From Escherichia coli (lineage in GTDB: Bacteria > Pseudomonadota > Gammaproteobacteria > Enterobacterales > Enterobacteriaceae), in assembly GCF_024502345.1 (NCBI RefSeq), contig NZ_JALDNN010000001.1: DNA of 64,000 nt; one strand, given 5' to 3'. Below the pieces are notes generated by a model. It was given only the letters and a program-made list of their open reading frames with translations, made no database searches and was not told the origin of the DNA. Shown here piece after piece: positions 29,833-52,740 of this stretch. The translations under genes and the position numbers were made by a program. Positions within the stretch are counted from its first letter, which is position 1, and every line of letters starts with the position of its first letter.

Positions 29833-30159
29833 TTAAAATTTTCGCACCCATTTACCGTTTATCCCTTGTACATATTCCCCCGGTTTGGCCCGAGCTACGA
29901 GCTTTTGCCCGGCGAGTTTCGCGATATCATCTACAGACACATTATTTTGCTTTGCCAGTTGTTGGTAACTCGCTTTACGTTCGGCATTAATGTCGGTTAC
30001 TAATTTCTCTGTTTCAGCATCCGTTTTCAGCGCAACCAGATAACCATAAAATGTTTCCCCGACCCGCCCCTGCGTTCTGGCTTCATCCAGAGTCAATGCC
30101 ATTACATTGCTGCTTACCAGCCCAACAAGAAACGCACAAAGAAGTAATGTTTTCTTCAT
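29833..30159 (-). CDS. ydbL: DUF1318 periplasmic protein YdbL
   Basis: 108 aa from the internal Met with signal peptide MKKTLLLCAFLVGLVSSNVMA. Confidence 0.75.
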   Translation of the reverse strand: MKKTLLLCAFLVGLVSSNVMALTLDEARTQGRVGETFYGYLVALKTDAETEKLVTDINAERKASYQQLAKQNNVSVDDIAKLAGQKLVARAKPGEYVQGINGKWVRKF

Positions 30160-30166
30160 CATCGCC

Positions 30167-30352
30167 TCAGAAAAGATCGCTACGAGTTTCAAGCAGCTCT
30201 TCGACATCTTTGTCTGCCTTGATGATGATCTCATGCTCAATTTTAACGTTCATATTGATAGTGATCGGTTCCTTGGGCGCAGCGACTTCAATACGCGGCG
30301 TACAGGCAGCCAGCATAAAAGATGACGTCAACGCAGCCAGTAAAATTTTCAT
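30167..30352 (-). CDS. ynbE: Small lipoprotein YnbE
   Basis: 61 aa, MKILLAALTSSFMLAACTP lipobox; its start overlaps the ydbH stop. Confidence 0.75.
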   Translation of the reverse strand: MKILLAALTSSFMLAACTPRIEVAAPKEPITINMNVKIEHEIIIKADKDVEELLETRSDLF

Positions 30353-32988: not shown

Positions 32989-33195
32989 GGGTAGTTAATA
33001 TCCTGATTTAGCGAAAAATTAAGCATTCAATACGGGTATTGTGGCATGTTTAACCGTTCAGTTGAAGGTTGCGCCTACACTAAGCATAGTTGTTGATGAA
33101 TTTTTCAATATCGCCATAGCTTTCAATTATATTTGATATTTTGTAAAATATTTTTAGTAGCTTAAATGTGATTCAACATCACTGGAGAAAGTCTT

Positions 33196-34185
33196 ATGAA
33201 ACTCGCCGTTTATAGCACAAAACAGTACGACAAGAAGTACCTGCAACAGGTGAACGAGTCCTTTGGCTTTGAGCTGGAATTTTTTGACTTTCTGCTGACG
33301 GAAAAAACCGCTAAAACTGCCAATGGCTGCGAAGCGGTATGTATTTTCGTAAACGATGACGGCAGCCGCCCGGTGCTGGAAGAGCTGAAAAAGCACGGCG
33401 TTAAATATATCGCCCTGCGCTGTGCCGGTTTCAATAACGTCGACCTTGACGCGGCAAAAGAACTGGGGCTGAAAGTAGTCCGTGTTCCAGCCTATGATCC
33501 AGAGGCCGTTGCTGAACACGCCATCGGTATGATGATGACGCTGAACCGCCGTATTCACCGCGCGTATCAGCGTACCCGTGACGCTAACTTCTCTCTGGAA
33601 GGTCTGACCGGCTTTACTATGTATGGCAAAACGGCAGGCGTTATCGGTACCGGTAAAATCGGTGTGGCGATGCTGCGCATTCTGAAAGGTTTTGGTATGC
33701 GTCTGCTGGCGTTCGATCCGTATCCAAGTGCAGCGGCGCTGGAACTCGGTGTGGAGTATGTCGATCTGCCAACCCTGTTCTCTGAATCAGACGTTATCTC
33801 TCTGCACTGCCCGCTGACACCGGAAAACTACCATCTGTTGAACGAAGCCGCCTTCGATCAGATGAAAAATGGCGTGATGATCGTCAATACCAGTCGCGGT
33901 GCATTGATTGATTCTCAGGCAGCAATTGAAGCGCTGAAAAATCAGAAAATTGGTTCGTTGGGTATGGACGTGTATGAGAACGAACGCGATCTGTTCTTTG
34001 AAGATAAATCCAACGACGTGATTCAGGATGACGTATTCCGTCGCCTGTCTGCCTGCCACAACGTGCTGTTTACCGGGCACCAGGCATTCCTGACAGCAGA
34101 AGCTCTGACCAGTATTTCTCAGACTACGCTGCAAAACTTAAGCAATCTGGAAAAAGGTGAAACCTGCCCGAACGAACTGGTTTAA
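33196..34185 (+). CDS. ldhA: Fermentative D-lactate dehydrogenase (NAD-dependent 2-hydroxyacid dehydrogenase)
   Basis: 329 aa, MKLAVYSTKQYDKKYLQQVNESFGFELEFFDF... Confidence 0.95.
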   Translation: MKLAVYSTKQYDKKYLQQVNESFGFELEFFDFLLTEKTAKTANGCEAVCIFVNDDGSRPVLEELKKHGVKYIALRCAGFNNVDLDAAKELGLKVVRVPAYDPEAVAEHAIGMMMTLNRRIHRAYQRTRDANFSLEGLTGFTMYGKTAGVIGTGKIGVAMLRILKGFGMRLLAFDPYPSAAALELGVEYVDLPTLFSESDVISLHCPLTPENYHLLNEAAFDQMKNGVMIVNTSRGALIDSQAAIEALKNQKIGSLGMDVYENERDLFFEDKSNDVIQDDVFRRLSACHNVLFTGHQAFLTAEALTSISQTTLQNLSNLEKGETCPNELV

Positions 34186-34295
34186 TCTTGCCGCTCCCCT
34201 GCAATCCAGGGGAGCTGATTCAGATAATCCCCAATGACCTTTCATTCTCTATTCTTAAAATAGTCCTGAGTCAGAAACTGTAATTGAGAACCACA

Positions 34296-34718
34296 ATGAA
34301 GAAACTAGCCGCGTTTGTTGCGCTAAGCCTGCTGATGGCGGGATGTGTAAGTAATGACAAAATTGCTGTTACGCCAGAACAGCTACAGCATCATCGCTTT
34401 GTGCTGGAAAGCGTAAACGGTAAGCCCGTGACCAGCGATAAAAATCCGCCAGAAATCAGCTTTGGTGAAAAAATGATGATTTCCGGCAGCATGTGTAACC
34501 GCTTTAGCGGTGAAGGCAAACTGTCTAATGGTGAACTGACAGCCAAAGGGCTGGCAATGACCCGTATGATGTGCGCTAACCCGCAGCTTAATGAACTCGA
34601 TAACACCATTAGCGAAATGCTGAAAGAAGGTGCACAAGTGGATCTGACCGCGAACCAGTTAACGCTGGCGACCGCGAAACAGACATTAACTTATAAGCTG
34701 GCGGATTTAATGAATTAA
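34296..34718 (+). CDS. hslJ: Heat-inducible lipoprotein HslJ (META domain)
   Basis: 140 aa from the internal Met, MKKLAAFVALSLLMAGC lipobox. Confidence 0.85.
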   Translation: MKKLAAFVALSLLMAGCVSNDKIAVTPEQLQHHRFVLESVNGKPVTSDKNPPEISFGEKMMISGSMCNRFSGEGKLSNGELTAKGLAMTRMMCANPQLNELDNTISEMLKEGAQVDLTANQLTLATAKQTLTYKLADLMN

Positions 34719-34981
34719 TAGCTGCCACAGCTCCCGGCGGCAAGTGACTGTTCGCTACAGCGTTTGCCGTTGGGTAATGCACACATCCCAATCGCCGTAC
34801 CATCCAGTTGACGGGCAACAGAAAGCGAACCGCCGATCATTGCACAATTTGCTTCTCCACTACTGGACATCGACGCTTTTAAACCTGGCGCTACGTGCGC
34901 CGCAGTCGCCTGCTGAACAGGTTCACTACTACACGCCGACAACAATAAAGCGGCACACCCTACCCAAAACGCTGCTCGCAT
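34715..34981 (-). CDS. ydbJ: DUF333 lipoprotein YdbJ
   Basis: 88 aa, MRAAFWVGCAALLLSAC lipobox; convergent with hslJ. Confidence 0.7.
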   Translation of the reverse strand: MRAAFWVGCAALLLSACSSEPVQQATAAHVAPGLKASMSSSGEANCAMIGGSLSVARQLDGTAIGMCALPNGKRCSEQSLAAGSCGSY

Positions 34982-35254
34982 CTCTTCTTCCTCTGATCTT
35001 CAAGCCAAACGACACCGCCATAAATAATAGGCAGCACAGAGGGCGGCGTCGAGAGCTGTCCTGCGCATTGCCCCGCATTTTTACTTTTTTATGGCTATTT
35101 TTTTGCCCTCTGTTTGATCAAAACATTCATTACGCTGATGTGGGGGACACAAAAGCGAAAATGCAGAAGAAAGCCATTTGCTAAAATTGAAGGATTACTA
35201 CTGGGCGCGCAGCAATTTCGTGCGCCCCTCATTTGCGCAATGTAAGGGTGTCAT

Positions 35255-38200
35255 ATGATTACTATTGACGGTAATGGCGCGGTTGCTTCGGTGGCGTTTC
35301 GCACCAGTGAAGTTATCGCCATCTACCCTATTACCCCCAGTTCCACGATGGCAGAACAGGCTGATGCCTGGGCCGGAAACGGCTTGAAGAACGTTTGGGG
35401 AGACACACCACGCGTGGTTGAAATGCAGTCGGAAGCGGGTGCTATCGCTACCGTGCATGGCGCTTTGCAGACGGGTGCCCTTTCAACATCGTTTACGTCA
35501 TCGCAGGGTTTGCTGCTGATGATCCCGACGCTGTACAAACTGGCAGGCGAACTCACACCGTTTGTCCTGCATGTAGCGGCACGTACCGTTGCCACACATG
35601 CACTCTCTATTTTTGGCGATCATTCCGACGTCATGGCGGTGCGCCAGACGGGTTGCGCGATGTTGTGTGCGGCAAACGTCCAGGAAGCGCAAGACTTTGC
35701 TCTCATTTCGCACATCGCGACGCTGAAAAGCCGCGTGCCATTTATTCATTTCTTTGATGGTTTCCGCACGTCCCACGAAATCAACAAAATTGTCCCGCTG
35801 GCCGATGACACGATTCTTGATCTCATGCCGCAGGCCGAAATTGATGCTCATCGCGCCCGGGCACTCAACCCGGAACATCCGGTGATCCGCGGTACGTCCG
35901 CCAATCCTGACACTTATTTCCAGTCTCGCGAAGCCACCAACCCATGGTACGACGCGGTCTATGACCATGTTGAACAGGCGATGAATGATTTCTCTGCCGC
36001 GACAGGTCGTCAGTATCAGCCGTTTGAATATTACGGGCATCCGCAAGCGGAACGGGTGATTATCCTGATGGGCTCTGCCATTGGCACCTGTGAAGAAGTG
36101 GTTGATGAATTGCTAACCCGTGGCGAAAAAGTCGGCGTGCTGAAAGTTCGCCTGTACCGCCCCTTCTCAGCCAAACACTTGCTACAAACTCTACCGGGAT
36201 CCGTACGTAGCGTGGCGGTACTGGACAGAACCAAAGAACCCGGTGCCCAGGCAGAACCGCTCTATCTGGATGTGATGACCGCACTGGCAGAAGCCTTTAA
36301 TAATGGCAAGCGCGAAACTCTGCCCCGTGTCATTGGTGGGCGCTATGGTCTTTCATCCAAAGAATTTGGCCCGGACTGTGTACTGGCGGTATTTGCCGAG
36401 CTCAACGCGGCTAAACCGAAAGCGCGCTTTACGGTTGGTATTTACGATGATGTAACCAATCTGTCCCTGCCGTTGCCGGAAAACACCCAGCCAAACTCGG
36501 CGAAACTTGAAGCCTTGTTTTATGGCCTTGGTAGTGATGGCAGCGTTTCCGCGACCAAAAACAATATCAAGATTATCGGTAATTCCACGCCGTGGTACGC
36601 ACAGGGCTATTTTGTTTACGACTCCAAAAAGGCGGGCGGCCTGACGGTTTCTCACCTTCGAGTGAGCGAACAGCCGATTCGTTCCGCTTATCTCATTTCC
36701 CAGGCTGATTTTGTTGGCTGCCACCAGTTGCAGTTTATCGATAAATATCAGATGGCTGAGCGTTTGAAACCTGGCGGCATTTTCCTGCTCAACACACCGT
36801 ACAGCGCAGATGAAGTGTGGTCGCGCTTGCCGCAAGAAGTTCAGGCCGTGTTAAACCAGAAAAAAGCGCGCTTCTATGTGATTAACGCGGCGAAAATCGC
36901 CCGCGAATGTGGCCTGGCGGCCCGTATTAATACCGTCATGCAGATGGCTTTTTTCCATCTGACGCAAATTCTGCCTGGCGATAGCGCCCTCGCAGAATTG
37001 CAGGGTGCGATTGCCAAAAGTTACAGTAGCAAAGGCCAGGATCTGGTGGAACGCAATTGGCAGGCTCTGGCGCTGGCGCGTGAATCCGTAGAAGAAGTTC
37101 CGTTGCAACCGGTAAATCCGCACAGCGCCAATCGACCGCCAGTGGTTTCCGATGCCGCTCCTGATTTCGTGAAAACCGTAACCGCTGCGATGCTCGCCGG
37201 GCTTGGTGACGCCCTCCCCGTTTCGGCGCTGCCGCCAGACGGCTCCTGGCCGATGGGCACTACGCGCTGGGAAAAACGTAATATTGCCGAAGAGATCCCC
37301 ATCTGGAAAGAGGAACTCTGTACCCAATGTAACCACTGCGTTGCCGCTTGCCCACACTCAGCTATTCGCGCAAAAGTGGTGCCGCCTGAAGCGATGGAAA
37401 ACGCCCCTGCCAGCCTGCATTCGCTGGATGTGAAATCGCGTGATATGCGCGGGCAGAAATATGTCTTGCAGGTGGCACCGGAAGATTGCACCGGTTGTAA
37501 CCTGTGCGTCGAAGTTTGCCCGGCGAAAGACCGTCAGAATCCAGAGATTAAAGCCATCAATATGATGTCTCGCCTGGAACATGTCGAAGAAGAGAAAATC
37601 AATTACGATTTCTTCCTCAACCTGCCAGAAATCGACCGTAGCAAACTGGAACGTATTGATATTCGTACATCGCAGCTGATTACACCGCTGTTTGAATATT
37701 CAGGTGCTTGCTCCGGTTGTGGCGAGACGCCGTATATTAAATTACTGACTCAGCTCTATGGCGACCGGATGTTGATCGCTAACGCCACTGGCTGTTCTTC
37801 AATTTATGGCGGTAACCTGCCCTCTACACCGTATACCACCGATGCCAACGGTCGTGGGCCGGCATGGGCGAACTCTCTATTTGAAGATAATGCCGAATTT
37901 GGCCTTGGTTTCCGCCTGACGGTCGATCAACACCGTATCCGCGTGCTGCGTCTGCTGGATCAATTTGCCGATAAAATCCCGGCGGAATTACTGACGGCGT
38001 TGAAATCAGACGCCACGCCAGAGGTTCGTCGTGAACAGGTTGCAGCTTTACGCCAGCAACTCAACGATGTTGCCGAAGCACATGAACTGCTACGTGATGC
38101 AGATGCACTGGTGGAAAAATCAATCTGGCTGATTGGTGGTGATGGCTGGGCTTACGATATCGGCTTTGGCGGTCTGGATCATGTATTGAGTTTGACGGAA

Positions 38201-38779
38201 AACGTCAACATTCTGGTGCTGGATACGCAATGCTATTCCAACACCGGTGGTCAGGCGTCGAAAGCGACACCGCTGGGTGCAGTAACTAAATTTGGCGAGC
38301 ACGGCAAACGTAAAGCGCGTAAAGATCTTGGCGTCAGTATGATGATGTACGGTCATGTTTATGTGGCGCAGATTTCTCTCGGCGCGCAGCTGAACCAGAC
38401 GGTGAAAGCGATTCAGGAAGCGGAAGCGTATCCGGGGCCATCGCTGATCATTGCTTATAGCCCGTGTGAAGAGCATGGTTACGATCTGGCACTCAGCCAC
38501 GACCAGATGCGCCAACTCACAGCTACCGGCTTCTGGCCGCTATATCGCTTCGATCCTCGTCGTGCCGATGAAGGCAAACTGCCGCTGGCGCTGGATTCAC
38601 GCCCGCCGTCAGAAGCACTGGAAGAAACGTTACTTCACGAGCAACGTTTCCGTCGTCTGAATTCGCAGCAGCCAGAAGTGGCAGAACAGTTATGGAAAGA
38701 TGCTGCAGCTGATTTGCAAAAACGCTATGACTTCCTGGCACAAATGGCCGGAAAAGCGGAAAAAAGCAACACCGATTAA
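35255..38779 (+). CDS. ydbK: Pyruvate:flavodoxin/ferredoxin oxidoreductase (NifJ-like PFOR)
   Basis: 1174 aa; PFOR domain order with two 4Fe-4S CxxCxxCxxxCP motifs (CTQCNHCVAACP, CTGCNLCVEVCP) and a TPP-binding region. Confidence 0.9.
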   Translation: MITIDGNGAVASVAFRTSEVIAIYPITPSSTMAEQADAWAGNGLKNVWGDTPRVVEMQSEAGAIATVHGALQTGALSTSFTSSQGLLLMIPTLYKLAGELTPFVLHVAARTVATHALSIFGDHSDVMAVRQTGCAMLCAANVQEAQDFALISHIATLKSRVPFIHFFDGFRTSHEINKIVPLADDTILDLMPQAEIDAHRARALNPEHPVIRGTSANPDTYFQSREATNPWYDAVYDHVEQAMNDFSAATGRQYQPFEYYGHPQAERVIILMGSAIGTCEEVVDELLTRGEKVGVLKVRLYRPFSAKHLLQTLPGSVRSVAVLDRTKEPGAQAEPLYLDVMTALAEAFNNGKRETLPRVIGGRYGLSSKEFGPDCVLAVFAELNAAKPKARFTVGIYDDVTNLSLPLPENTQPNSAKLEALFYGLGSDGSVSATKNNIKIIGNSTPWYAQGYFVYDSKKAGGLTVSHLRVSEQPIRSAYLISQADFVGCHQLQFIDKYQMAERLKPGGIFLLNTPYSADEVWSRLPQEVQAVLNQKKARFYVINAAKIARECGLAARINTVMQMAFFHLTQILPGDSALAELQGAIAKSYSSKGQDLVERNWQALALARESVEEVPLQPVNPHSANRPPVVSDAAPDFVKTVTAAMLAGLGDALPVSALPPDGSWPMGTTRWEKRNIAEEIPIWKEELCTQCNHCVAACPHSAIRAKVVPPEAMENAPASLHSLDVKSRDMRGQKYVLQVAPEDCTGCNLCVEVCPAKDRQNPEIKAINMMSRLEHVEEEKINYDFFLNLPEIDRSKLERIDIRTSQLITPLFEYSGACSGCGETPYIKLLTQLYGDRMLIANATGCSSIYGGNLPSTPYTTDANGRGPAWANSLFEDNAEFGLGFRLTVDQHRIRVLRLLDQFADKIPAELLTALKSDATPEVRREQVAALRQQLNDVAEAHELLRDADALVEKSIWLIGGDGWAYDIGFGGLDHVLSLTENVNILVLDTQCYSNTGGQASKATPLGAVTKFGEHGKRKARKDLGVSMMMYGHVYVAQISLGAQLNQTVKAIQEAEAYPGPSLIIAYSPCEEHGYDLALSHDQMRQLTATGFWPLYRFDPRRADEGKLPLALDSRPPSEALEETLLHEQRFRRLNSQQPEVAEQLWKDAAADLQKRYDFLAQMAGKAEKSNTD

Positions 38780-38808
38780 ATGCTCTGGATAAGGATTATC
38801 CAATTCTA

Positions 38809-38917
38809 AAAAAAAGCCCGGACGACTGTTCGGGCTTGTCTTTTTATATGTTGGAAAATCAGTGGCAATGCAATGGCCCAACAGAAAATAAAATCTGTGA
38901 CAATAAAGGCATATAAC
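38809..38917 (-). ncRNA. micC: MicC small RNA (porin-regulating, Hfq-dependent)
   Basis: The minus strand reads GTTATATGCCTTTATTGTCACAGATTTTATTTTCTGTTGGGCCATTGCATTGCCACTGATTTTCCAACATATAAAAAGACAAGCCCGAACAGTCGTCCGGGCTTTTTTTT, matching remembered MicC; divergent from ompN and sharing a bidirectional hairpin with the ydbK 3' end. Confidence 0.8.
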
Positions 38918-39144
38918 CCGCGCAGAATAACGTATAGAAAATTAAAAGTATAATTTTTATTTTGTATGTATTATCTTCGATACATTCACCAGACTTATTA
39001 TCATTTCAGAAGAATTATTTGATTAAGGTTTTACTTAAGGCGTAACAAATGATATTTATCGGCTAACTGAACTTCTCCTTTAGGATGTTTTCACTCCCCG
39101 GAATGGGGATAAAAGGCAAATAAAATAACTAAAGGATTTATTCA

Positions 39145-40278
39145 ATGAAAAGCAAAGTACTGGCACTTTTAAATCCTGCCCTGCTCGCCGCAGGTGCTGC
39201 ACATGCAGCCGAAGTTTATAATAAAGACGGCAACAAATTAGATCTGTATGGCAAAGTTGATGGCCTGCATTATTTTTCTGATAATTCAGCGAAAGATGGC
39301 GATCAGAGCTATGCGCGTCTGGGTTTTAAAGGCGAAACCCAAATTAACGATCAACTCACTGGCTACGGTCAATGGGAATACAATATTCAGGCAAACAACA
39401 CTGAATCTTCAAAAAACCAGTCATGGACCCGTCTGGCATTTGCCGGGCTGAAATTTGCAGATTACGGTTCTTTCGATTACGGACGTAATTATGGCGTAAT
39501 GTACGACATCGAAAGCTGGACCGATATGCTGCCTGAATTTGGCGGTGACTCTTATACCAATGCAGACAACTTTATGACTGGTCGTGCCAACGGCGTCGCG
39601 ACTTATCGTAATACTGATTTCTTCGGTCTGGTAAATGGTCTGAACTTCGCGGTGCAGTATCAAGGTAACAACGAAGGTGCCAGTAATGGTCAGGAAGGCA
39701 CCAACAACGGACGTGATGTTCGCCATGAAAATGGTGACGGCTGGGGTCTTTCCACAACATATGATTTAGGCATGGGCTTTAGCGCTGGTGCGGCATACAC
39801 CTCATCTGACCGCACCAATGACCAGGTTAACCATACTGCGGCGGGTGGTGATAAAGCAGACGCGTGGACTGCTGGGCTAAAATACGATGCTAACAATATT
39901 TACCTGGCAACCATGTATTCAGAAACGCGTAATATGACCCCGTTTGGCGACAGCGATTATGCTGTTGCAAACAAAACCCAGAACTTTGAAGTCACTGCAC
40001 AGTACCAGTTTGATTTTGGTCTGCGTCCGGCAGTCTCTTTCCTGATGTCTAAAGGCCGTGACCTGCACGCTGCCGGTGGTGCAGACAACCCGGCAGGTGT
40101 TGATGATAAAGATCTTGTTAAATACGCCGATGTTGGCGCGACTTACTATTTCAATAAAAACATGTCCACTTATGTTGACTATAAAATCAACCTGTTGGAT
40201 GAAGATGACAGTTTCTACGCTGCCAACGGCATCTCTACCGATGATATTGTCGCTTTAGGTCTGGTTTATCAGTTCTAA
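39145..40278 (+). CDS. ompN: Outer-membrane porin N (OmpC/OmpF family)
   Basis: 377 aa with a signal peptide and the general-porin C-terminus ...LGLVYQF. Confidence 0.9.
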
Positions 40279-40286
40279 ATCCTCCT

Positions 40287-40310
40287 GCCCGCTGTTATGG
40301 CGGGCTTTTT
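40287..40310 (+). terminator. Rho-independent terminator after ompN
   Basis: GCCCGC-tgttatg-GCGGGC followed by TTTTT. Confidence 0.6.
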
Positions 40311-40337
40311 CTGCTTATTCTTCCTCCTTTGATCTAA

Positions 40338-40853
<516 letters not shown>

Positions 40854-40860
40854 CACTAAC

Positions 40861-40885
40861 GCCCGCACATTGCTGCGGGCTTTTT
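40861..40885 (+). terminator. Rho-independent terminator after uspF
   Basis: GCCCGCA-cattgct-GCGGGC followed by TTTTT. Confidence 0.6.
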
Positions 40886-41028
40886 GATTCATTTCGCAAA
40901 TGTGCTGACATTTTCCCCTCTAATCCGTACCATACACGCCACTGTTTTTATATCAGATTTCTTATGCTGGGCATTCCGGCATGACGCATACTCTTCTGAT
41001 GCCATATAACGAATTGAGTCGCTTTTAA

Positions 41029-41964
41029 ATGTCGCAAAATCAAGAAATTAGTAAGAAAGAACAATACAACCTGAACAAATTACAAAAACGTCTGCGTCGT
41101 AACGTGGGCGAAGCCATTGCTGACTTCAATATGATTGAAGAAGGCGATCGCATCATGGTTTGCCTCTCCGGGGGTAAAGACAGCTATACCATGCTGGAGA
41201 TTCTGCGCAATTTGCAGCAAAGCGCGCCAATCAATTTTTCGCTGGTGGCTGTTAACCTCGATCAAAAGCAACCGGGCTTCCCGGAACACGTTCTGCCCGA
41301 GTATCTTGAAAAGCTGGGCGTTGAGTACAAGATTGTCGAAGAGAACACTTACGGTATCGTGAAAGAGAAGATTCCAGAGGGCAAAACCACTTGCTCACTG
41401 TGTTCTCGCCTTCGTCGCGGTATCCTTTATCGTACCGCAACGGAACTGGGGGCGACGAAGATCGCGCTGGGTCACCATCGTGACGATATCCTGCAGACGT
41501 TGTTCTTAAATATGTTCTACGGCGGCAAGATGAAAGGTATGCCTCCGAAACTGATGAGCGATGATGGCAAACATATCGTTATTCGTCCGCTGGCCTACTG
41601 CCGCGAGAAAGATATTCAGCGATTTGCCGATGCAAAAGCGTTCCCGATTATTCCGTGCAACCTGTGCGGTTCACAGCCTAACCTGCAACGTCAGGTGATT
41701 GCTGACATGTTGCGTGACTGGGATAAACGTTATCCAGGGCGTATCGAGACGATGTTCAGCGCGATGCAGAATGTGGTGCCGTCGCATCTGTGCGATACTA
41801 ACCTGTTCGATTTCAAAGGCATCACCCACGGTTCTGAAGTGGTTAACGGGGGTGATTTGGCGTTTGATCGCGAAGAGATCCCACTACAACCGGCGGGCTG
41901 GCAGCCAGAAGAAGATGAAAATCAGTTGGATGAGTTACGGCTGAATGTGGTTGAAGTGAAATAA
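41029..41964 (+). CDS. ttcA: tRNA 2-thiocytidine(32) synthetase
   Basis: 311 aa; SGGKDS PP-loop motif and CxxC motifs. Confidence 0.9.
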
Positions 41965-42011
41965 CCAAGATGGCGCCCGATGCGCAAGCGTATCGGGCTA
42001 CTCTTATGGAG

Positions 42012-42045
42012 GCCGGATAAGACGCGGCCAGCGTCGCATCCGGCA
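42012..42045. repeat. REP (repetitive extragenic palindrome) unit between ttcA and dbpA
   Basis: GCCGGATAAGACGCGGCCAGCGTCGCATCCGGCA. Confidence 0.5.
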
Positions 42046-42092
42046 ATCCCGAATAAGATGTTTACTCTTGCACCCGGCAATTCAACATTTCA

Positions 42093-43466
42093 TTATTTTA
42101 ATAACCGCACCCGGCACGTTTTTCCTTTAATCTTCCCGCCCTGTAACTGTTTCCATGCTTTATGAGCAACAGCCTGACGGACCGCGACATAGACATGCGC
42201 CGGATGCACGGCGATTTTGCCAATATCTGCGCCATCAAGCCCGATATCTCCTGTCAGTGCACCTAATACATCACCCGGGCGCATTTTGGCTTTTTTCCCG
42301 CCATCAATACACAACGTTGCCATTTCTGCTTCCAGCGGCACAATGGAACTATTAGCTGGCGGCGTTTGCCAGTTAAGTTTTATCTGCAACATGTCAGAAA
42401 TGATATTGGCCCGCTGTGCTTCTTCCGGAGCACAGAAACTGATCGCCAGACCGCTATTTCCTGCACGAGCTGTACGGCCGATGCGATGTACATGAACTTC
42501 AGGGTCCCACGCCAGCTCAAAGTTCACCACCAGCTCAAGCGATTTAATATCCAGACCACGCGCAGCAACATCAGTCGCAACCAGTACACGGGCGCTACCG
42601 TTAGCAAAACGTACCAGGGTCTGATCGCGATCGCGTTGCTCCAAATCGCCGTGTAATGACAATGCACTTTGCCCTACTTCATTCAGCGCGTCGCAGACAG
42701 CCTGGCAATCTTTTTTGGTATTGCAAAACACCACGCAAGAGGATGGCTGATGCAAGCTTAATAACCGTTGCAACAGAGGAATTTTGCCTTTGCTGGATGT
42801 CTCATAAAATTGTTGTTCAATGGGTGGCAAAGCATCTGTTGAGTCAATTTCAATCGCCAAAGGATCGCGTTGCACTCGTCCGCTGATTACGGCGATGGCT
42901 TCCGGCCAGGTTGCCGAAAACAGAAGCGTCTGTCGAGATGCAGGCGCAAAACGGATGACATCATCAATGGCATCGCTAAATCCCATATCCAGCATGCGGT
43001 CGGCCTCATCCATCACCAAAGTATTCAGCGCATCCAGTGATACCGTGCCTTTTTGCAAGTGATCCAGCAAACGACCCGGCGTTGCAACGATAATATGCGG
43101 CGCATGTTGCAACGAATCACGCTGCATACCGAACGGTTGACCACCGCACAACGTCAAAATTTTGGTATTTGGGAGAAAACGCGCCAGCCGACGCAATTCA
43201 CCTGCCACCTGATCCGCCAGTTCACGCGTAGGACACAGCACTAAAGCCTGGGTTTGAAATAGCGACGCATCAATTTGCTGTAACAAGCCGAGGCCAAAAG
43301 CCGCCGTTTTGCCGCTGCCGGTTTTCGCCTGCACGCGAACATCTTTTCCGGCAAGGATCGCCGGAAGCGCGGCGACCTGCACCGGCGTCATGGTTAAATA
43401 ACCCAACTCATTAAGGTTCGTGAGTTGGGCGGGAGGCAAAACATGCAGGGTAGAAAAAGCGGTCAC
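42093..43466 (-). CDS. dbpA: ATP-dependent RNA helicase DbpA (DEAD box, 23S rRNA-dependent)
   Basis: 457 aa; Q motif, AKTGSGKT Walker A and DEAD motif. Confidence 0.9.
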   Translation of the reverse strand: MTAFSTLHVLPPAQLTNLNELGYLTMTPVQVAALPAILAGKDVRVQAKTGSGKTAAFGLGLLQQIDASLFQTQALVLCPTRELADQVAGELRRLARFLPNTKILTLCGGQPFGMQRDSLQHAPHIIVATPGRLLDHLQKGTVSLDALNTLVMDEADRMLDMGFSDAIDDVIRFAPASRQTLLFSATWPEAIAVISGRVQRDPLAIEIDSTDALPPIEQQFYETSSKGKIPLLQRLLSLHQPSSCVVFCNTKKDCQAVCDALNEVGQSALSLHGDLEQRDRDQTLVRFANGSARVLVATDVAARGLDIKSLELVVNFELAWDPEVHVHRIGRTARAGNSGLAISFCAPEEAQRANIISDMLQIKLNWQTPPANSSIVPLEAEMATLCIDGGKKAKMRPGDVLGALTGDIGLDGADIGKIAVHPAHVYVAVRQAVAHKAWKQLQGGKIKGKTCRVRLLK

Positions 43467-43726
43467 AATCTATTCTCGTGGTCATCGACGCAAAGTTAGC
43501 AGGCGCGTATCCTCGCAGATCTACGCTCACGATGCGACAATTTAATCGGTTCTTCATCAGGTGGTGGGTCAGGCATGGGTTGCGGGCGAGGGATCGGATC
43601 GGGCACTGGAACAGGATCGCCAGGAATCGGTTCAGGGACAGGAATTTGCAAATAAATAAGTGTCGTCATATTTCCCTCCGGTCATTGGGTGGACTCTTAA
43701 AGGGTAGACGCTGATAAATAACAGGC

Positions 43727-43848
43727 AAAAAAAAGCCGACTCATCAAAGTCGGCGTCGTACGAATCAATTGTGCTATGCAGTAATTCAAAAAAGGAAGTA
43801 AGACAATATGGAGCGCAACGCCCATCGCTTGACGTTGCATTCACCTGC
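43727..43848 (-). ncRNA. fnrS: FnrS small RNA (FNR-activated, Hfq-dependent)
   Basis: The minus strand reads GCAGGTGAATGCAACGTCAAGCGATGGGCGTTGCGCTCCATATTGTCTTACTTCCTTTTTTGAATTACTGCATAGCACAATTGATTCGTACGACGCCGACTTTGATGAGTCGGCTTTTTTTT, matching remembered FnrS, with a terminal hairpin and T-run. Confidence 0.8.
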
Positions 43849-43883
43849 AAGGGAGATATTGCCCTGAATGGGTAGAGAGTTTA

Positions 43884-43897
43884 TTGACTTCGCTCAA
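43884..43897 (-). promoter_or_regulatory. FNR site (TTGAG-N4-GTCAA) centred about 42 bp upstream of the fnrS 5' end
   Basis: The minus strand reads TTGAGCGAAGTCAA; position fits a class II FNR-activated promoter. Confidence 0.6.
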
Positions 43898-43943
43898 ACT
43901 TTGCGGCGTTTTTGTATACAGACAGCCGGAAAAATTGCTTTTG

Positions 43944-44948
<1,005 letters not shown>

Positions 44949-45181
44949 TTATTTTGTAGTCTAGCCTTCTGGCCCTGTTACGCAACATCTCATCACCCCA
45001 TTACCCTGAAATGATTAATAAAATTCTGTCTAAATTGAATACAAAAAGCAAAATGCTTTTCCGTATACAAACCGTGTGAAGTGTTAAATAGCGTCTATCA
45101 TTATCAGAATTATCTGATCATATGACGTGGCTTTTTTGCGATCGGATAGCAACAAAAATTGATAAAAATAACGGGATCTCA

Positions 45182-46414
45182 ATGATTACGCACAACTTCA
45201 ATACCCTGGACTTACTCACCAGTCCTGTCTGGATCGTTTCGCCCTTTGAGGAACAGTTAATTTATGCCAATAGCGCGGCGCGACTGTTGATGCAAGACCT
45301 CACGTTTAGTCAGCTACGAACCGGTCCCTATTCCGTCTCCTCACAAAAAGAACTGCCGAAATACCTCTCCGATCTGCAAAACCAACACGATATTATCGAA
45401 ATCCTCACTGTTCAGCGTAAAGAAGAGGAAACAGCATTAAGCTGTCGGCTTGTTTTGCGAAAGCTGACAGAAGCAGAACCGGTGATTATTTTCGAAGGTA
45501 TCGAAGCGCCGGCAACGCTGGGTTTAAAAGCCAGTCGCTCGGCAAATTATCAGCGCAAAAAACAAGGTTTTTATGCGCGCTTTTTTCTGACTAACTCTGC
45601 ACCAATGTTGTTGATTGCCCCCTCACGAGATGGCCAAATCGTCGATGCTAACCTCGCCGCGCTCAATTTCTATGGTTATAACCATGAAACGATGTGCCAG
45701 AAACATACCTGGGAAATAAATATGCTCGGGCGTCGCGTCATGCCTATCATGCATGAAATTTCGCATTTACCCGGTGGTCATAAACCTCTGAATTTTATTC
45801 ATAAGCTGGCGGATGGTTCGACTCGTCATGTGCAGACCTACGCCGGGCCGATTGAAATTTATGGCGACAAGCTCATGTTATGTATTGTGCATGATATTAC
45901 TGAGCAAAAACGGCTGGAGGAGCAGCTGGAACATGCTGCTCACCATGACGCGATGACCGGATTACTGAATCGGCGACAGTTTTATCACATTACGGAACCA
46001 GGCCAAATGCAGCATCTCGCCATCGCTCAGGATTACAGCTTGTTGCTCATCGACACCGATCGTTTTAAACACATTAACGATCTCTATGGGCATTCTAAAG
46101 GTGATGAGGTGTTATGCGCCCTCGCCCGCACCCTCGAAAGTTGCGCTCGCAAAGGCGATTTGGTGTTTCGTTGGGGAGGCGAAGAGTTTGTCTTATTGCT
46201 ACCAAGAACCCCACTGGATACCGCGCTTTCGCTGGCTGAAACTATCCGCGTAAGCGTGGCAAAAGTGAGTATTTCGGGCTTACCACGCTTTACCGTCAGC
46301 ATTGGTGTGGCGCATCACGAAGGAAATGAAAGCATCGATGAACTGTTTAAACGCGTTGATGATGCTTTGTATCGGGCGAAAAATGATGGACGCAACCGCG
46401 TGCTGGCGGCATAA
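45182..46414 (+). CDS. dgcM: PAS-PAS-GGDEF diguanylate cyclase (active site reads GGEEF)
   Basis: 410 aa from the internal Met, MITHNFNTLDLLTSPVWIVSP...; RWGGEEF motif. Confidence 0.8.
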   Translation: MITHNFNTLDLLTSPVWIVSPFEEQLIYANSAARLLMQDLTFSQLRTGPYSVSSQKELPKYLSDLQNQHDIIEILTVQRKEEETALSCRLVLRKLTEAEPVIIFEGIEAPATLGLKASRSANYQRKKQGFYARFFLTNSAPMLLIAPSRDGQIVDANLAALNFYGYNHETMCQKHTWEINMLGRRVMPIMHEISHLPGGHKPLNFIHKLADGSTRHVQTYAGPIEIYGDKLMLCIVHDITEQKRLEEQLEHAAHHDAMTGLLNRRQFYHITEPGQMQHLAIAQDYSLLLIDTDRFKHINDLYGHSKGDEVLCALARTLESCARKGDLVFRWGGEEFVLLLPRTPLDTALSLAETIRVSVAKVSISGLPRFTVSIGVAHHEGNESIDELFKRVDDALYRAKNDGRNRVLAA

Positions 46415-46434
46415 GCCGCGGATGCGTCTCGTGA

Positions 46435-46998
46435 TCAACGGCTGCGCTTAGCGTGGCGCTCCCAGTTTTCTTGCTTCGCCTGCGCCGTTTTACGTAGTGC
46501 GACATAACACGCCCCGCTGCCGCCATGATGCGGTAGCGCGGTGCAATATGCCTGAACATCATCAAATTCGGTCAGCCAGCGCGCCACATAGCTGCGGACA
46601 ATATTGGCATGCGATTTATCATCCCGCCCTTTACCATGAATAATCAGCACGTTACGCAAACTATCCGCCAGGGCTTGTTGAATGAAACTGAACACCATTT
46701 TGCGGCACTCTTCCACCGGCTGGCGCAAAAGATTCAGGCTCGCCTGTTGCGGATATTTACCACTGCGAAGCTTATCCAGCACCCCATGTTGCAACCCTTC
46801 CCGCCGAAACTCCAGCGGCTGACTTAGTGGGATGATGTCGAGAAATCCGGTGGTGAGGAAATTATCAAGCTGCAGCGTGTCGATACGCTGCGGCGCACGT
46901 TGGTTACGCGTTGGATGCCAGTGGACATCGGTAGCACGTTTCAGCGGCTGGACATCTTCCATGGCGTCAAGAAACAGCGATTTGTCGTCAAGGTTCAT
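46435..46998 (-). CDS. smrA: Smr-domain DNA endonuclease
   Basis: 187-aa ORF in the conserved position between dgcM and abgR. Confidence 0.75.
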   Translation of the reverse strand: MNLDDKSLFLDAMEDVQPLKRATDVHWHPTRNQRAPQRIDTLQLDNFLTTGFLDIIPLSQPLEFRREGLQHGVLDKLRSGKYPQQASLNLLRQPVEECRKMVFSFIQQALADSLRNVLIIHGKGRDDKSHANIVRSYVARWLTEFDDVQAYCTALPHHGGSGACYVALRKTAQAKQENWERHAKRSR

Positions 46999-47283
46999 GT
47001 TACATCCTCCCGCAATTAAGAGCGCGATATGATAACCAGACCGGGTCGGTCCAACAACGTATTACCCAAAATTCCAGTAATAAGTTCCAAATATTGCCGA
47101 TATTTTAAGCAAAATGCTTATGCATGATTATTCATTCACGATATTAATAATGTAACTTATATTTTCGTGAAATCTGTCACTGAAGAAAATTGGCAACTAA
47201 AGGTTAAAACCGTTATAACACAGTCACCGGCGCAGAGGAGACAATGCCGGACTTAAGACGCGGATGCACTGCTGTGTGTACTG

Positions 47284-47319
47284 TAGAGTCTGGCGGATGT
47301 CGACAGACTCTATTTTTTT
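47284..47319 (+). terminator. Strong plus-strand hairpin with T7 run and no plus-strand CDS upstream; possible sRNA 3' end (IsrA-like position)
   Basis: TAGAGTCTG-gcggatgtcga-CAGACTCTA followed by TTTTTTT; lies in the smrA-abgR intergenic region, where both flanking genes are on the minus strand. Confidence 0.35.
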
Positions 47320-47327
47320 ATGCAGTT

Positions 47328-48236
47328 TTAACTTTGCAGATAGCCGCATTCTCGCCGGAATTGCGTGATTAATGACGCGGTCAGTGGTGTCTGGCGACTA
47401 TCACGCCGCTGAATCAAATAATAGGCCGCTTTCGGTAAAATTTCGCTAACCGGCAACATCACCAGCCCCTGTCCATGCAAGGGATCGCAGCCCATTTCTT
47501 CAGGCAGTATGCTGAGAAAATCGCTTTTTGCCACCAGACTGATACAGGCTGAGAACGTCTCGCAGACTACACCGACCTGTGGCGTTTGCGCCTGATCGTC
47601 AAGCAATTCACTCAACTGTTTGTAGTAACTGCCGTGTGGCGTCGGCATTGTCCAGCTGTAATCCAGTAACTGTTTGATCGAACGGGCACCAATGGCGGGG
47701 TGTCCCGGGCGGCAAAAGATCGCGAATTGCTTTTCCAGTAATTTCTCAAAAGTAAATTCGTGGTCGTACGGTCCCTGATAATAGGTATTGATGGTGAAAT
47801 CCAATTCTCCCTGACGCAATTCATTAATCATCGACACCAGTTGCCCTTCCATAATGCGTACTTTTACCTGCGGATGCTGCTGATGAAAACGAGATATGAC
47901 AGCTGGCATCAGACTGCGGGAAATACTGGCCCCCATGCCGATATTAATCTGCCCTGCCAGTTGCCCTTGTCGTTGGCGAATATCCTCTTGGGCTGCGCGC
48001 AGCTCTTCAAGAATAAGACTGGCGTGCTGATAAAAACTTTCACCGGCATCAGTTAACGTCACGCCTTTACTACGGCGAAAAAAGAGTTGCGCCGCTAATC
48101 CTTCTTCCAGCTCCTGAATAGATTTACTCCGTGCCGGTTGCGACATATTCAACATTCGGCTCGCTCCGCGAATGCTGCCCTGACGAGCCACTTCAACAAA
48201 AGCCCGAATTTGATGAATTTTTACCTGAAAAGCCAT
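47328..48236 (-). CDS. abgR: LysR-family regulator of the abg operon
   Basis: 302 aa, MAFQVKIHQIRAFVEVARQGSIRGASRMLNMSQPARSKSIQELEE; divergent from abgA. Confidence 0.85.
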   Translation of the reverse strand: MAFQVKIHQIRAFVEVARQGSIRGASRMLNMSQPARSKSIQELEEGLAAQLFFRRSKGVTLTDAGESFYQHASLILEELRAAQEDIRQRQGQLAGQINIGMGASISRSLMPAVISRFHQQHPQVKVRIMEGQLVSMINELRQGELDFTINTYYQGPYDHEFTFEKLLEKQFAIFCRPGHPAIGARSIKQLLDYSWTMPTPHGSYYKQLSELLDDQAQTPQVGVVCETFSACISLVAKSDFLSILPEEMGCDPLHGQGLVMLPVSEILPKAAYYLIQRRDSRQTPLTASLITQFRRECGYLQS

Positions 48237-48411
48237 GACGCCACCGATAACCGTTATTTATCAGACCAAAGAAACTGGCATCTACTTTAATGCAGATGAT
48301 TGTGTCAGGGTAATTTATGAACGGTTAAAACTGTGAAAAATCAGTTAGTGATAAGTAAAAACTATCGCTACGTGAACCGGGTCACACTTTTTACTGATGA
48401 CGGGAAAGGTT

Positions 48412-49722
48412 ATGGAGTCTTTGAATCAATTTGTTAATTCGCTTGCCCCAAAATTATCGCACTGGCGACGTGATTTTCATCACTATGCAGAGTCTGGCTG
48501 GGTGGAATTCCGCACTGCCACCCTTGTTGCGGAAGAATTGCAGCAGCTCGGCTATTCACTGGCGCTGGGCCGCGAAGTAGTTAATGAAAGTAGCCGGATG
48601 GGACTACCTGATGAACTCACTCTACAACGCGAATTCGAGCGCGCTCGTCAACAGGGTGCGCTAGCACAATGGATTGCGGCTTTTGAAGGTGGTTTCACTG
48701 GTATCGTCGCCACCCTGGATACCGGTCGCCCCGGTCCGGTGATGGCTTTCCGTGTCGATATGGACGCGCTGGATCTCAGTGAAGAGCAGGATGTCAGCCA
48801 TCGCCCCTACCGCGACGGTTTTGCGTCATGTAACGCCGGAATGATGCATGCCTGTGGTCATGATGGGCATACCGCCATTGGGCTTGGGCTGGCGCATACC
48901 CTTAAACAGTTCGAGTCCGGACTACATGGCATCATCAAACTGATTTTTCAACCTGCAGAAGAAGGTACGCGTGGCGCGCGGGCGATGGTCGATGCAGGTG
49001 TAGTGGATGATGTTGATTATTTTACTGCCGTGCACATTGGCACTGGCGTACCTGCGGGCACCGTGGTGTGCGGCAGTGATAATTTTATGGCAACCACCAA
49101 ATTTGACGCGCACTTCACCGGGACCGCCGCTCACGCAGGCGCAAAACCAGAAGACGGTCACAATGCCTTGTTGGCGGCAGCACAAGCAACTCTTGCACTG
49201 CATGCAATCGCCCCGCACAGCGAAGGCGCTTCCAGAGTAAACGTGGGCGTTATGCAGGCAGGAAGCGGTCGTAATGTTGTTCCTGCCTCGGCGTTGCTGA
49301 AAGTGGAAACACGCGGGGCCAGCGACGTCATTAATCAATATGTTTTTGACCGTGCACAACAAGCGATTCAGGGCGCAGCAACCATGTATGGTGTCGGCGT
49401 TGAAATTCGTCTGATGGGTGCAGCTACCGCCAGTTCTCCTTCGCCGCAATGGGTCGCATGGTTGCAAAGTCAGGCGGCTCAGGTCGCGGGGGTCAATCAG
49501 GCCATTGAACGTGTCGAAGCGCCTGCGGGTTCCGAAGATGCCACATTAATGATGGCCCGCGTGCAGCAACATCAAGGGCAAGCCTCCTACATGGTGTTTG
49601 GCACACAGCTGGCGGCAGGTCATCACAACGAAAAATTCGATTTTGACGAGCAGGTTCTCGCTATTGCCGTCGAAACGCTGGCGCGCACCGCGCTCAATTT
49701 TCCCTGGACGCGAGGTATCTGA
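48412..49722 (+). CDS. abgA: p-Aminobenzoyl-glutamate hydrolase subunit A (M20 peptidase)
   Basis: 436 aa from the internal Met, MESLNQFVNSLAPKLSHWRRDFHHYAESGW...; its stop overlaps the abgB start (TGATG). Confidence 0.85.
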   Translation: MESLNQFVNSLAPKLSHWRRDFHHYAESGWVEFRTATLVAEELQQLGYSLALGREVVNESSRMGLPDELTLQREFERARQQGALAQWIAAFEGGFTGIVATLDTGRPGPVMAFRVDMDALDLSEEQDVSHRPYRDGFASCNAGMMHACGHDGHTAIGLGLAHTLKQFESGLHGIIKLIFQPAEEGTRGARAMVDAGVVDDVDYFTAVHIGTGVPAGTVVCGSDNFMATTKFDAHFTGTAAHAGAKPEDGHNALLAAAQATLALHAIAPHSEGASRVNVGVMQAGSGRNVVPASALLKVETRGASDVINQYVFDRAQQAIQGAATMYGVGVEIRLMGAATASSPSPQWVAWLQSQAAQVAGVNQAIERVEAPAGSEDATLMMARVQQHQGQASYMVFGTQLAAGHHNEKFDFDEQVLAIAVETLARTALNFPWTRGI

Positions 49723-51167
49723 TGCAGGAAATCTATCGTTTTATCGACGATGCGATTGAAGCCGATCGCCAACGTTATACCGATATTGCCGATCAAATCT
49801 GGGATCATCCAGAAACACGTTTTGAAGAGTTCTGGTCAGCGGAGCATCTGGCTTCGGCGCTGGAATCTGCAGGCTTCACCGTTACCCGCAACGTAGGCAA
49901 TATCCCAAATGCCTTTATTGCTTCGTTTGGTCAAGGCAAACCGGTTATCGCCCTGCTGGGAGAATATGACGCCCTGGCAGGTTTAAGTCAGCAAGCTGGT
50001 TGCGCGCAACCTACATCCGCGACGCCCGGTGAAAATGGTCACGGTTGCGGACACAATTTGCTGGGAACCGCCGCCTTTGCCGCTGCAATAGCCGTCAAGA
50101 AATGGCTGGAACAATATGGGCAAGGCGGCACAGTGAGCTTTTATGGTTGTCCTGGCGAAGAAGGCGGCTCGGGTAAAACGTTCATGGTCCGCGAGGGGGT
50201 ATTTGATGATGTGGATGCGGCACTCACCTGGCACCCGGAAGCCTTTGCCGGTATGTTCAATACCCGCACGCTGGCAAACATTCAGGCATCATGGCGCTTT
50301 AAAGGGATCGCAGCACATGCCGCGAATTCCCCTCATTTGGGACGCAGCGCCCTTGATGCCGTAACGTTGATGACCACTGGCACCAACTTCCTCAACGAAC
50401 ATATTATTGAAAAAGCGCGCGTACACTATGCCATCACAAATAGTGGCGGGATCTCGCCCAACGTGGTCCAGGCGCAGGCAGAAGTGCTTTATCTTATCCG
50501 CGCCCCCGAAATGACCGACGTGCAGCATATTTATGATCGAGTCGCCAAAATCGCCGAAGGTGCGGCATTGATGACCGAAACCACGGTTGAATGCCGCTTC
50601 GACAAAGCCTGTTCCAGTTAGCTCCCGAGTCGCACCTTAGAAAATGCCATGTACCAGGCCCTATCCCATTTTGGTACCCCGGAATGGAACTCCGAAGAAC
50701 TGGCTTTTGCGAAACAAATTCAGGCTACGCTCACCCCCAACGATCGGCAAAACAGTCTGAATAATATCGCCGCAACCGGTGGCGAAAACGGCAAGGCTTT
50801 TGCACTACGTCATCGTGAAACGGTACTGGCGAATGAAGTCGCTCCATATGCCGCCACCGATAACGTGCTTGCGGCATCGACTGATGTCGGCGACGTCAGT
50901 TGGAAACTGCCTGTTGCCCAGTGTTTCAGCCCCTGTTTTGCCGTCGGTACACCGCTACATACGTGGCAACTGGTTAGCCAGGGGCGAACATCTATTGCTC
51001 ATAAAGGAATGCTGCTGGCGGCGAAAACTATGGCAGCAACCACAGTCAATCTCTTCCTTGATTCAGGGCTATTGCAAGAATGCCAACAAGAGCATCAGCA
51101 AGTAACGGACACGCAACCGTACCACTGCCCTATCCCGAAAAACGTGACACCGTCACCTTTAAAATAA
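49722..51167 (+). pseudogene. abgB: p-Aminobenzoyl-glutamate hydrolase subunit B reading frame with a single in-frame TAG at codon 300 (50619..50621)
   Basis: ORFs 49722..50621 and 50649..51167 are in the same frame; 299 + stop + 9 + 172 codons gives 481, the remembered AbgB length; protein-like sequence continues through the TAG. Confidence 0.7.
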
Positions 51168-51203
51168 CAACAACAACGCAAACACAACAACCGAGGAATG
51201 CCC

Positions 51204-52730: not shown

Positions 52731-52740
52731 GAGAGAACGG

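Follow-up and report, generated by a model that had tools for sequence, protein, structure and literature searches.

The closest described counterpart of the locus analysed here is the attB that remains in Escherichia coli K-12 after deletion of the Rac prophage (delta-rac, encoding the variant TtcA′; Liu et al. 2015, Sci Rep 5:16074, PMC4632033). It has been established by others for K-12 that the integrase IntR, together with the excisionase XisR, recombines attP with a site in ttcA. Binding of XisR to attR has been reported, attL has been placed within the ttcA coding region (both PMC4632033), and Rac excision is reported to remove 23,060 bp (PMC11014345). The phage carries its own ttcA start and first codons beside intR, so that the lysogen keeps a 311-codon ttcA with four altered N-terminal residues, and the old 5′ end is stranded as ttcC beside uspF. 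The same ttcA site is used by CP-933R in strain EDL933, Sp10 in strain Sakai and Rac-SA53 (KU052037), and in each of these it is occupied. The empty site itself has already been described (Liu et al. 2015, PMC4632033; PMC6379469; PMC11014345).

Two other phages resemble Rac in part. Like Rac, e14 sits inside a host gene (icd), supplies a near-identical substitute end, leaves a pseudogene duplicate (icd′, the counterpart of ttcC) and brings conservative residue changes (PMC6379469). It replaces the 3′ end of its target and leaves the transcription signals untouched, whereas Rac replaces the 5′ end of ttcA and everything upstream; the phage must therefore provide for ttcA expression. Lambda, at gal–bio, likewise recombines at a short common core through a tyrosine integrase that has an arm-binding domain, and it too depends on Xis for excision; IntR matches the Pfam models Arm-DNA-bind_2 and Phage_integrase, the arm-binding and catalytic domains of a lambda-type tyrosine integrase. 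The lambda attB is intergenic with a 15-bp core, whereas the Rac core is coding sequence and forms a 26-bp block of identity in K-12. At tRNA and tmRNA genes, the remnant of an integrase pseudogene is commonly found beside the att site. Prophage decay leaves the 3′ end of the integrase gene, in truncated form, by the target gene, and the cases that we found in E. coli AGR5151, Salmonella and Citrobacter belong to this class; the relic described below differs from the usual remnants in being far more decayed, unannotated, common to several genera and conserved above the level of silent sites.

We compared these systems with the uspF–ttcA junction in a 64-kb stretch of E. coli DNA, referred to as a whole as the window (Table 1). 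The upstream gene is called as UspF by the NCBIfam equivalog NF011581 (303 bits against a cut-off of 166) and the downstream gene as TtcA by the equivalog NF007972 (513.6 bits against 272), a full-length match whose translation carries the PP-loop motif SGGKDS (as CLSGGKDS). A first-pass annotation of the window had called the junction an unoccupied Rac site, on the grounds that only 175 bp, including the uspF terminator, part the uspF stop from the start of a ttcA of 311 codons. Both counts are borne out by the coordinates. The spacer does contain a terminator-like hairpin, with 7 pairs (6 of them G-C) followed by TTTTT, and the hairpin is kept in Citrobacter spacers.

Table 1. Features at and around the uspF–ttcA junction, in window coordinates.
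Feature	Position	Strand	Details
uspF	40419..40853	+	ATG 40419, TGA stop 40851-40853; 144 aa; left neighbour of the site
uspF–ttcA spacer	40854-41028		exactly 175 bp
uspF intrinsic-terminator-like hairpin and T run	40861..40885 (stem-loop 40861-40880)	+	GCCCGCACATTGCTGCGGGC plus T run; consensus scan
Fossil of a Rac-type tyrosine integrase gene	40898..40960	+	KCADIFPSNPYHTRHCFYIRF against IntR 345-365 KRAGIRRRNPYHTRHTFACWL
Predicted sigma-70 promoter	40905..40933	+	-35 CTGACA 40905-40910, 17 nt, -10 TACCAT 40928-40933; expected start ~40940
ttcA, tRNA 2-thiocytidine(32) synthetase	41029..41964	+	311 codons; N-terminus MSQNQEIS
First 8 ttcA codons	41029..41052	+	swapped for the phage copy on integration; base-by-base comparison
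attB common core	41053..41078	+	AAGAAAGAACAATACAACCTGAACAA; 26 bp, ttcA codons 9-17; identical in window, K-12 attL and K-12 attR
dbpA	42093-43466	opposite	ORF listing

That Rac parts ttcA from the uspF side in K-12, as the annotation stated, agrees with the MG1655 record, which has ttcA at 1411013-1411948, a 23,060-bp Rac at 1411899-1434958, the ttcC pseudogene at 1434958-1435008 and uspF at 1435185-1435619. The direct junction is not native to K-12 as well; Rac interrupts K-12 here, and the two K-12 core copies are spaced 23,060 bp apart, the length reported for the excision deletion (PMC11014345). By local blastn, window positions 25940-41078 are colinear with the uspF flank of K-12 up to the Rac boundary (98.9 per cent identity) and positions 41036-55738 with the ttcA flank (99.0 per cent), and colinearity reaches ~15 kb on each side of the junction. 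In a 121-bp comparison with the K-12 junctions the two bacterial arms are joined directly in the window. The left arm is that of the uspF/ttcC–Rac junction (89/89 nt), matching through 41078, and the right arm is that of the intR/ttcA junction (32/32 nt), which the window follows from the ATG onward.

Searches of the 64-kb window with the 23,033-bp Rac interior (blastn) and with XisR (tblastn) gave no match, and no IntR coding sequence lies between the arms or elsewhere in the window, apart from the fossil in the spacer. An occupied or recently scarred Rac site carries intR or a long fragment of it upstream of ttcA, an N-terminus like MQENQQIT and a ttcC beside uspF. The window locus, unlike these, has no ttcC duplicate, no long integrase fragment and no phage-type N-terminus. 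Since the arms are joined directly, the core is present once and there is no Rac DNA in the window, the site is unoccupied, as had been claimed, and the comparison supports an identification of the region as the unoccupied attB of Rac and Rac-like lambdoid prophages. We found nothing against the empty-site reading. The full length of ttcA, which the annotation had taken as a mark of emptiness, has no such value. The ttcA of the K-12 lysogen also has 311 codons, since Rac brings a start codon and first codons in place of those displaced, and gene length is uninformative on occupancy. The features that do mark emptiness are contiguity, the single core copy and the N-terminus MSQNQEIS, where K-12 has MQENQQIT.

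Alignment to the K-12 attL and attR, a check that the annotation had proposed, located the core as a 26-bp block that all three sequences share without a mismatch. The core falls within ttcA, with the uspF stop 200 nt upstream of it, and not in the spacer at 40854-41028, where the annotation had put the attachment site; its verdict of emptiness stands and its placement does not. The window holds the core as a single copy, with no second copy at up to 6 mismatches. Immediately upstream of the core, the prophage-side copy of K-12 reads ATGCAAGAAAATCAACAAATTACA against the native ATGTCGCAAAATCAAGAAATTAGT, and the first eight ttcA codons share 18/24 nt with the copy that the K-12 prophage supplies. 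Window and K-12 TtcA are separated by four N-terminal changes (S2Q, Q3E, E6Q and S8T), and the same four residues separate lysogen TtcA from post-excision TtcA′ (PMC4632033). The window and K-12 delta-rac agree in locus, core, flanks and this four-residue difference, with no difference in attB itself, and the window site shows all the features by which the K-12 post-excision attB is defined in sequence.

In the phage Rac-SA53 (KU052037) the same 26 positions are annotated as attP/attB. Its phage-side copy differs at 3/26 core positions and its two junctions share only ATACAACCTGAACAA (15 bp), which argues that exchange probably takes place within the same stretch; the most likely location of strand exchange in the window is the right-hand 15 bp of the core, 41064-41078. 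The exact attP junction, phage arm to core to phage arm, is found in five IMG/VR contigs with intR on one side. A search of PLSDB for a free circular attP returned none, the matches being only chromosomal fragments filed as plasmids. The record vB_EcoS-683R6, considered as a free attP, was rejected as a prophage with host flanks. From the identity with the K-12 post-excision attB (PMC4632033) and from the attP in the five contigs, we infer that the window site would be competent for IntR-mediated integration.

How common each state is was determined among 5,426 complete E. coli genomes. The intact 121-bp junction is present in 2490 (46 per cent; 2487 with a 1.8-kb query), and in 54 per cent the site is interrupted. 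A K-12-like intR 3′ end is joined to ttcA in 1886 genomes (35 per cent), and by subtraction ~18 per cent keep just the last ~76 integrase codons beside ttcA. In E. coli AGR5151 this last-76-codon piece is annotated as an integrase pseudogene, ~2 kb from uspF. The 121-bp junction of the window is 100 per cent identical to that of many Rac-free E. coli, including K-12 AG100. Adjacency of uspF and ttcA with an MSQNQ-type N-terminus also occurs in six Citrobacter-like species representatives. With the junction intact in 46 per cent of genomes and already published, the empty state is therefore an ordinary one.

The one new detail at this locus is in the spacer. The first-pass annotation had treated the spacer as intergenic DNA with a terminator; the terminator stands, and the rest is not mere intergenic DNA, since it includes a fossil of a Rac-type integrase gene. 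When the window was searched with K-12 IntR by tblastn, the sole match in the 64 kb was in this spacer, on the strand that intR would occupy. The fossil agrees with IntR at 13/25 amino acids, with NPYHTRH exact, and with K-12 intR at 38/51 nucleotides, including a 15-nt exact run; the match includes AATCCGTACCATAC. It spans 50-60 nt, perhaps ~110 nt (~20-37 codons), covers the catalytic box-II region from codon 345 onward, and may extend with frameshifts to ~41010 (IntR ~381). Taken alone, the tblastn E-value over the whole window is 0.17. Among 3000 dinucleotide-preserving shuffles of the spacer, none reached the observed nucleotide score (38 against 19.2 +/- 2.2, z ~8.5) or the observed protein score (56 against 28.7 +/- 3.9, z ~7). 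The Pfam Phage_integrase model gave no match to the relic peptides at E-values up to 10, as expected for fragments of 28-42 residues; the fossil is a remnant and not a functional gene.

The presence of an integrase fossil in the spacer is well supported by these comparisons. Because NPYHTRH is the catalytic box-II motif and intrinsic to the recombinase, the spacer descends from the integrase and not the reverse. Given the intR-like position and orientation of the fossil, a Rac-type phage therefore once sat at this locus and has lost all but this piece. K-12 carries two generations of integrase at the locus, since the fossil lies beside ttcC and intR beside ttcA. In the open-access literature we found no paper that names an integrase remnant in the uspF–ttcA spacer or a ttcA promoter in intR. 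PMC4632033 mentions neither an integrase remnant nor a ttcA promoter, and the only 'promoter' in it is that of flhDC.

Across Enterobacterales, the region directly upstream of ttcA forms a graded series from an intact integrase to a short relic. The series was drawn from 21 species-representative loci retrieved by exact match to the core, from four genera reached through their TtcA proteins and from one Salmonella locus, which came from a chromosomal fragment filed as a plasmid in PLSDB. As the 21 loci were retrieved by the core itself, its exactness across genera is no sign of constraint. A full integrase stands upstream of ttcA in K-12, E. coli E69, Citrobacter Awk4 and Enterobacter chuandaensis, and C-terminal fragments with stop codons are found in Citrobacter youngae, C. 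portucalensis, Citrobacter sp. R56, Enterobacter soli and Buttiauxella. The Salmonella fragment starts exactly at codon 345, in the prophage-free layout uspF–STM1653–ttcA. Relics were detected in Pectobacterium (IntR 327-362, E 7e-15), Lelliottia (338-363, E 1e-9), Mangrovibacter (345-361, E 3e-8) and Serratia (342-366, E 1e-5), where the relic comes directly after ydbK. The 'native' spacer of E. coli and Citrobacter corresponds to IntR 345-369, and reaches 381 in one Citrobacter. The relic of Lelliottia has an intermediate sequence, with an E. coli-type proximal leader and the N-terminus MSQNQEIN. No relic was detected in Yokenella despite an N-terminus like that of E. coli, so not every lineage has kept one.

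On the evidence of this series, phage occupancy evidently predates the divergence of Escherichia, Citrobacter and Lelliottia. The 'ancestral' 5′ end of ttcA was then itself probably delivered by an earlier phage. The MSQNQEIS form has been named the 'ancient copy' (PMC4632033), and the fossil suggests that this N-terminus may come from an earlier phage.

Inside the fossil lies the only promoter-like site in 40250-42150, a predicted sigma-70 promoter with 9/12 consensus matches (Table 1). In 20/20 intact and relic copies there is no change in the CTG of its -35, in the length of the spacing (17 nt) or in ATCCGTACCATAC. The -35 reads CTGGTA in the intact K-12 intR (a poor match, 3/6), CTGGCA in several relics, and CTGACA in the relics of E. 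coli, Citrobacter, Lelliottia and Citrobacter R56. Between the window and Citrobacter, identity is 82-86 per cent over the 131 proximal nt of the spacer, and ~93 per cent within the fossil, while third codon positions of ttcA are just 55-62 per cent identical between E. coli and Citrobacter. Independent truncations keep IntR from codon 345 or earlier (345, 342, 338, 335, 327, 326 and earlier), and the kept boundary at codon 345 falls just upstream of the -35. In Salmonella LT2, RpoD ChIP-exo peaks are reported at 1746962-1747002 and 1747092-1747132 (PMC10794520). The latter falls within the integrase fragment and follows the homologous -10 closely without covering it; the former is further upstream. 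In the supplementary transcription-start tables that were consulted ttcA has no entry, and the one for EDL933 lists uspF and dbpA. The consensus match and the conservation suggest, though they do not prove, that ttcA is now driven by DNA of an old integrase. Rac-type phages may carry a ttcA promoter inside the integrase gene, in which case decay would stop where ttcA expression would end, and the fossil would persist since it carries that promoter.

Taken whole, as an empty attB with an integrase fossil and an inferred phage origin of the ttcA promoter and 5′ end, this explanation has in our estimate a probability of about 0.85. The likeness between spacer and intR could instead be chance or convergence at a site that was never occupied, for example a promoter that happens to resemble box-II coding sequence. 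In favour of this are the small size of the relic, its failure to match the generic Pfam model for integrases and a whole-window E-value of 0.17. Chance is nonetheless highly improbable in view of the shuffles, of a nucleotide-level identity with an exact 15-nt run, and of a match whose place, a single 175-bp spot, and whose strand are those expected for an integrase. An unbroken series of intermediates, placed alike with respect to ttcA both in other genera and in E. coli itself, counts against it too, as does a catalytic motif whose direction of descent runs from integrase to spacer. Still less credible is a junction left by imprecise deletion of a prophage or by its collapse in assembly, which would make it a scar or artefact and not a functional attB. 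Such scars are known elsewhere, from the integrase pseudogene beside ttcA in AGR5151, through an IS1 with a deletion in CAVP776, to the Citrobacter and Salmonella fragments. The recent ones show a phage-type MQENQ or MQDNQ N-terminus and long IntR fragments, whereas the window has a native-type N-terminus, no recent integrase fragment, intact flanks and a junction that is base-for-base the same over 121 bp as in 2490 genomes; on the shared junction, the N-terminus and the flanks we rejected this origin.

A prophage that left recently by precise IntR/XisR excision, so that the site was vacated and not long empty, is a more serious alternative and in our judgement an unlikely one. Precise excision restores exactly the sequence and TtcA N-terminus of the window (PMC4632033; PMC11014345), K-12 AG100 in RefSeq is a Rac-free K-12, and the interruption of the site in 54 per cent of complete genomes implies that gain and loss are frequent. 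The product would be indistinguishable by sequence from a long-empty or never-occupied site, and the closest full-length matches (99.3-99.4 per cent over 24 kb) are all contiguous, in a list that is biased toward contiguous genomes. The promoter has a competitor of its own, in that a genuine fossil may be conserved for another role, as a regulator site, a small RNA derived from the uspF 3′ end or a leader element. This we consider possible though somewhat doubtful. Conservation spans the whole proximal 131 nt, beyond the hexamers, part of the Salmonella sRNA SaaS aligns by BLAST with the homologous LT2 segment, and the LT2 sigma-70 footprints lie off the predicted hexamers. On the other side, what never varies in the 20 copies is the CTG of the -35, a spacing of exactly 17 nt and the -10 block, and the independent truncations keep IntR from codon 345 or earlier, a boundary just upstream of the -35. 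A structured ttcA leader was dropped as a candidate, because the predicted RNA fold of 40940-41060 is no different from that of shuffles (z = 0.31).

With the site read as an empty attB, the strain has neither Rac nor a Rac-like prophage at ttcA, would offer the Rac phage family a receptive landing place, and makes the TtcA′ N-terminal variant. One study associates this variant with a metabolic rate that, under carbenicillin stress, is below that of the lysogen form (PMC4632033). If the promoter idea is true, integration and excision of Rac would toggle ttcA between two homologous promoters of different strength, and such a switch could contribute to the reported phenotypes of Rac excision. 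The locus also indicates that a textbook 'ancestral' empty att site can itself be the leftover of an earlier integration, and that the promoter of a host gene may derive from integrase coding sequence.

A broader proposal, which we hold tentatively and at a little under even odds, is that the 5′ end of ttcA has been replaced serially by phages. Each Rac-type phage would bring a surrogate start and first codons together with a promoter that maintains ttcA expression, lodged in the 3′ coding part of the integrase gene (codons ~346-356); on decay of the prophage, selection would retain this piece alone, as an exapted relic, and even the 'ancestral' N-terminus of TtcA would be phage-derived. In E. 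coli, Citrobacter and Lelliottia the native spacer would be a fossil of this exapted kind, its -35 having changed for the better, from CTGGTA or CTGGCA to CTGACA. Over its first 8-10 residues TtcA is highly variable across Enterobacterales, a pattern for which serial delivery by phages, if true, would account.

Loci of a further type occur within E. coli, as in strain AGR5151, where a stretch of pseudogenes and then an annotated integrase pseudogene, amounting to the last 76 codons of the gene, lie between uspF and ttcA (see table). This locus represents an intermediate state of decay inside the species. Loci of the AGR5151 type make up about 18 per cent of complete E. coli genomes (a figure obtained by subtraction), and many of these genomes are without the ttcC side, i.e. 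the stranded original 5′ end of ttcA. Liu et al. (2015; PMC4632033) singled out strain CFT073 as an 'exception', which the AGR5151-type state probably accounts for. Other rearrangements at the locus were also found. In the K-12 substrain AG100 (NZ_LN832404.1), which is Rac-free, uspF adjoins ttcA, and a small duplication of the 5′ part of ttcA is annotated as a partial pseudogene. In E. coli CAVP776, an IS1 and a deletion lie directly behind the first 13 nt of ttcA.

One NCBI protein of 340 aa (P0004) comes from a gene call that runs from ...CADIFPSNPYHTR straight into KKEQYNLNK of TtcA. In some genome, then, the reading frame of the fossil (the decayed IntR piece in the uspF–ttcA spacer) is fused to ttcA, either by a deletion or through an ORF call that was extended.

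Salmonella enterica has also kept part of the integrase. Both NZ_CP110932.1 and LT2 (NC_003197.2, 1746964–1747303) carry a 67-codon intR fragment that starts at exactly codon 345 and has 98.5 per cent identity to K-12 IntR. The fragment lies in the gene order that is normal for prophage-free Salmonella, namely uspF, the SMR transporter STM1653, and ttcA. RpoD ChIP-exo peaks of LT2 fall on or beside the fragment, as does a piece of the sRNA SaaS placed by BLAST (1747049–1747109).

Direct comparison of TtcA sequences from K-12 and from empty sites identified four differing residues (2, 3, 6, and 8). The TtcA of the window (41029–41964) has one further difference from K-12 near the C-terminus (...QPAGWQ... 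versus ...QPACWQ...). Published accounts of ttcA after Rac excision disagree, with four residue changes listed by Liu et al. (PMC4632033) and three base changes (Q6E, T8S) given in a 2023 NAR paper (PMC11014345). Across Enterobacterales, TtcA homologues vary widely in the first 8–10 residues and are 86–92 per cent conserved from a 16-residue stretch after this variable N-terminus onward. This pattern is consistent with a 5′ end that phages have replaced repeatedly.

Outside the ttcA locus, the paa (phenylacetate) cluster and tynA are cut down to a mosaic of fragments (23425–25944), joined by three deletions with junction overlaps of 2–5 nt. Of 5,426 complete E. coli genomes, not one has this arrangement in contiguous form. 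The exact PaaF::PaaX fusion protein is, however, encoded in NCBI assembly GCA_050022275.1 and on a few metagenome contigs; a single one of these contigs carries the first deletion only.

Features of the window and of the AGR5151 locus
Feature	Coordinates	Strand	Remarks
sok antitoxin RNA	7708–7859		Rfam
RydC	8419–8482		Rfam
IS5-family transposase ORF	20670–21638		357 bits; region of ydbD in K-12
paaY	mosaic at 23425–25944		part of paa/tynA mosaic
PaaF (N-terminus)::PaaX (C-terminus) fusion ORF	23998–24555	−
PaaE C-terminal part	24552–25160	−
PaaZ internal piece	25192–25956	+
TynA C-terminal 341 codons	25935–26963	+
MicC	38800–38920	−	Rfam
FnrS	43731–43848	−	Rfam
McaS	47226–47321		Rfam
Extra ORFs between ycjY and mpaA	60902–62594		310 aa hydrolase-like and 216 aa NAD-binding-like
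E. coli AGR5151 locus	NZ_CP097370.1 2560138–2568520		uspF, ~2 kb pseudogenes, integrase pseudogene, ttcA

Two elements of K-12 are missing from the window: the ydbA pseudogene, together with the IS2 and IS30 that it contains, and the IS5F between ynaI and ynaJ (~55735). Between ycjY and mpaA, K-12 has only ymjC/ymjD remnants, versus ~1.7 kb with two additional ORFs here. Matches to five small RNAs, taken at the Rfam gathering score, all lie at the positions predicted by K-12 synteny.
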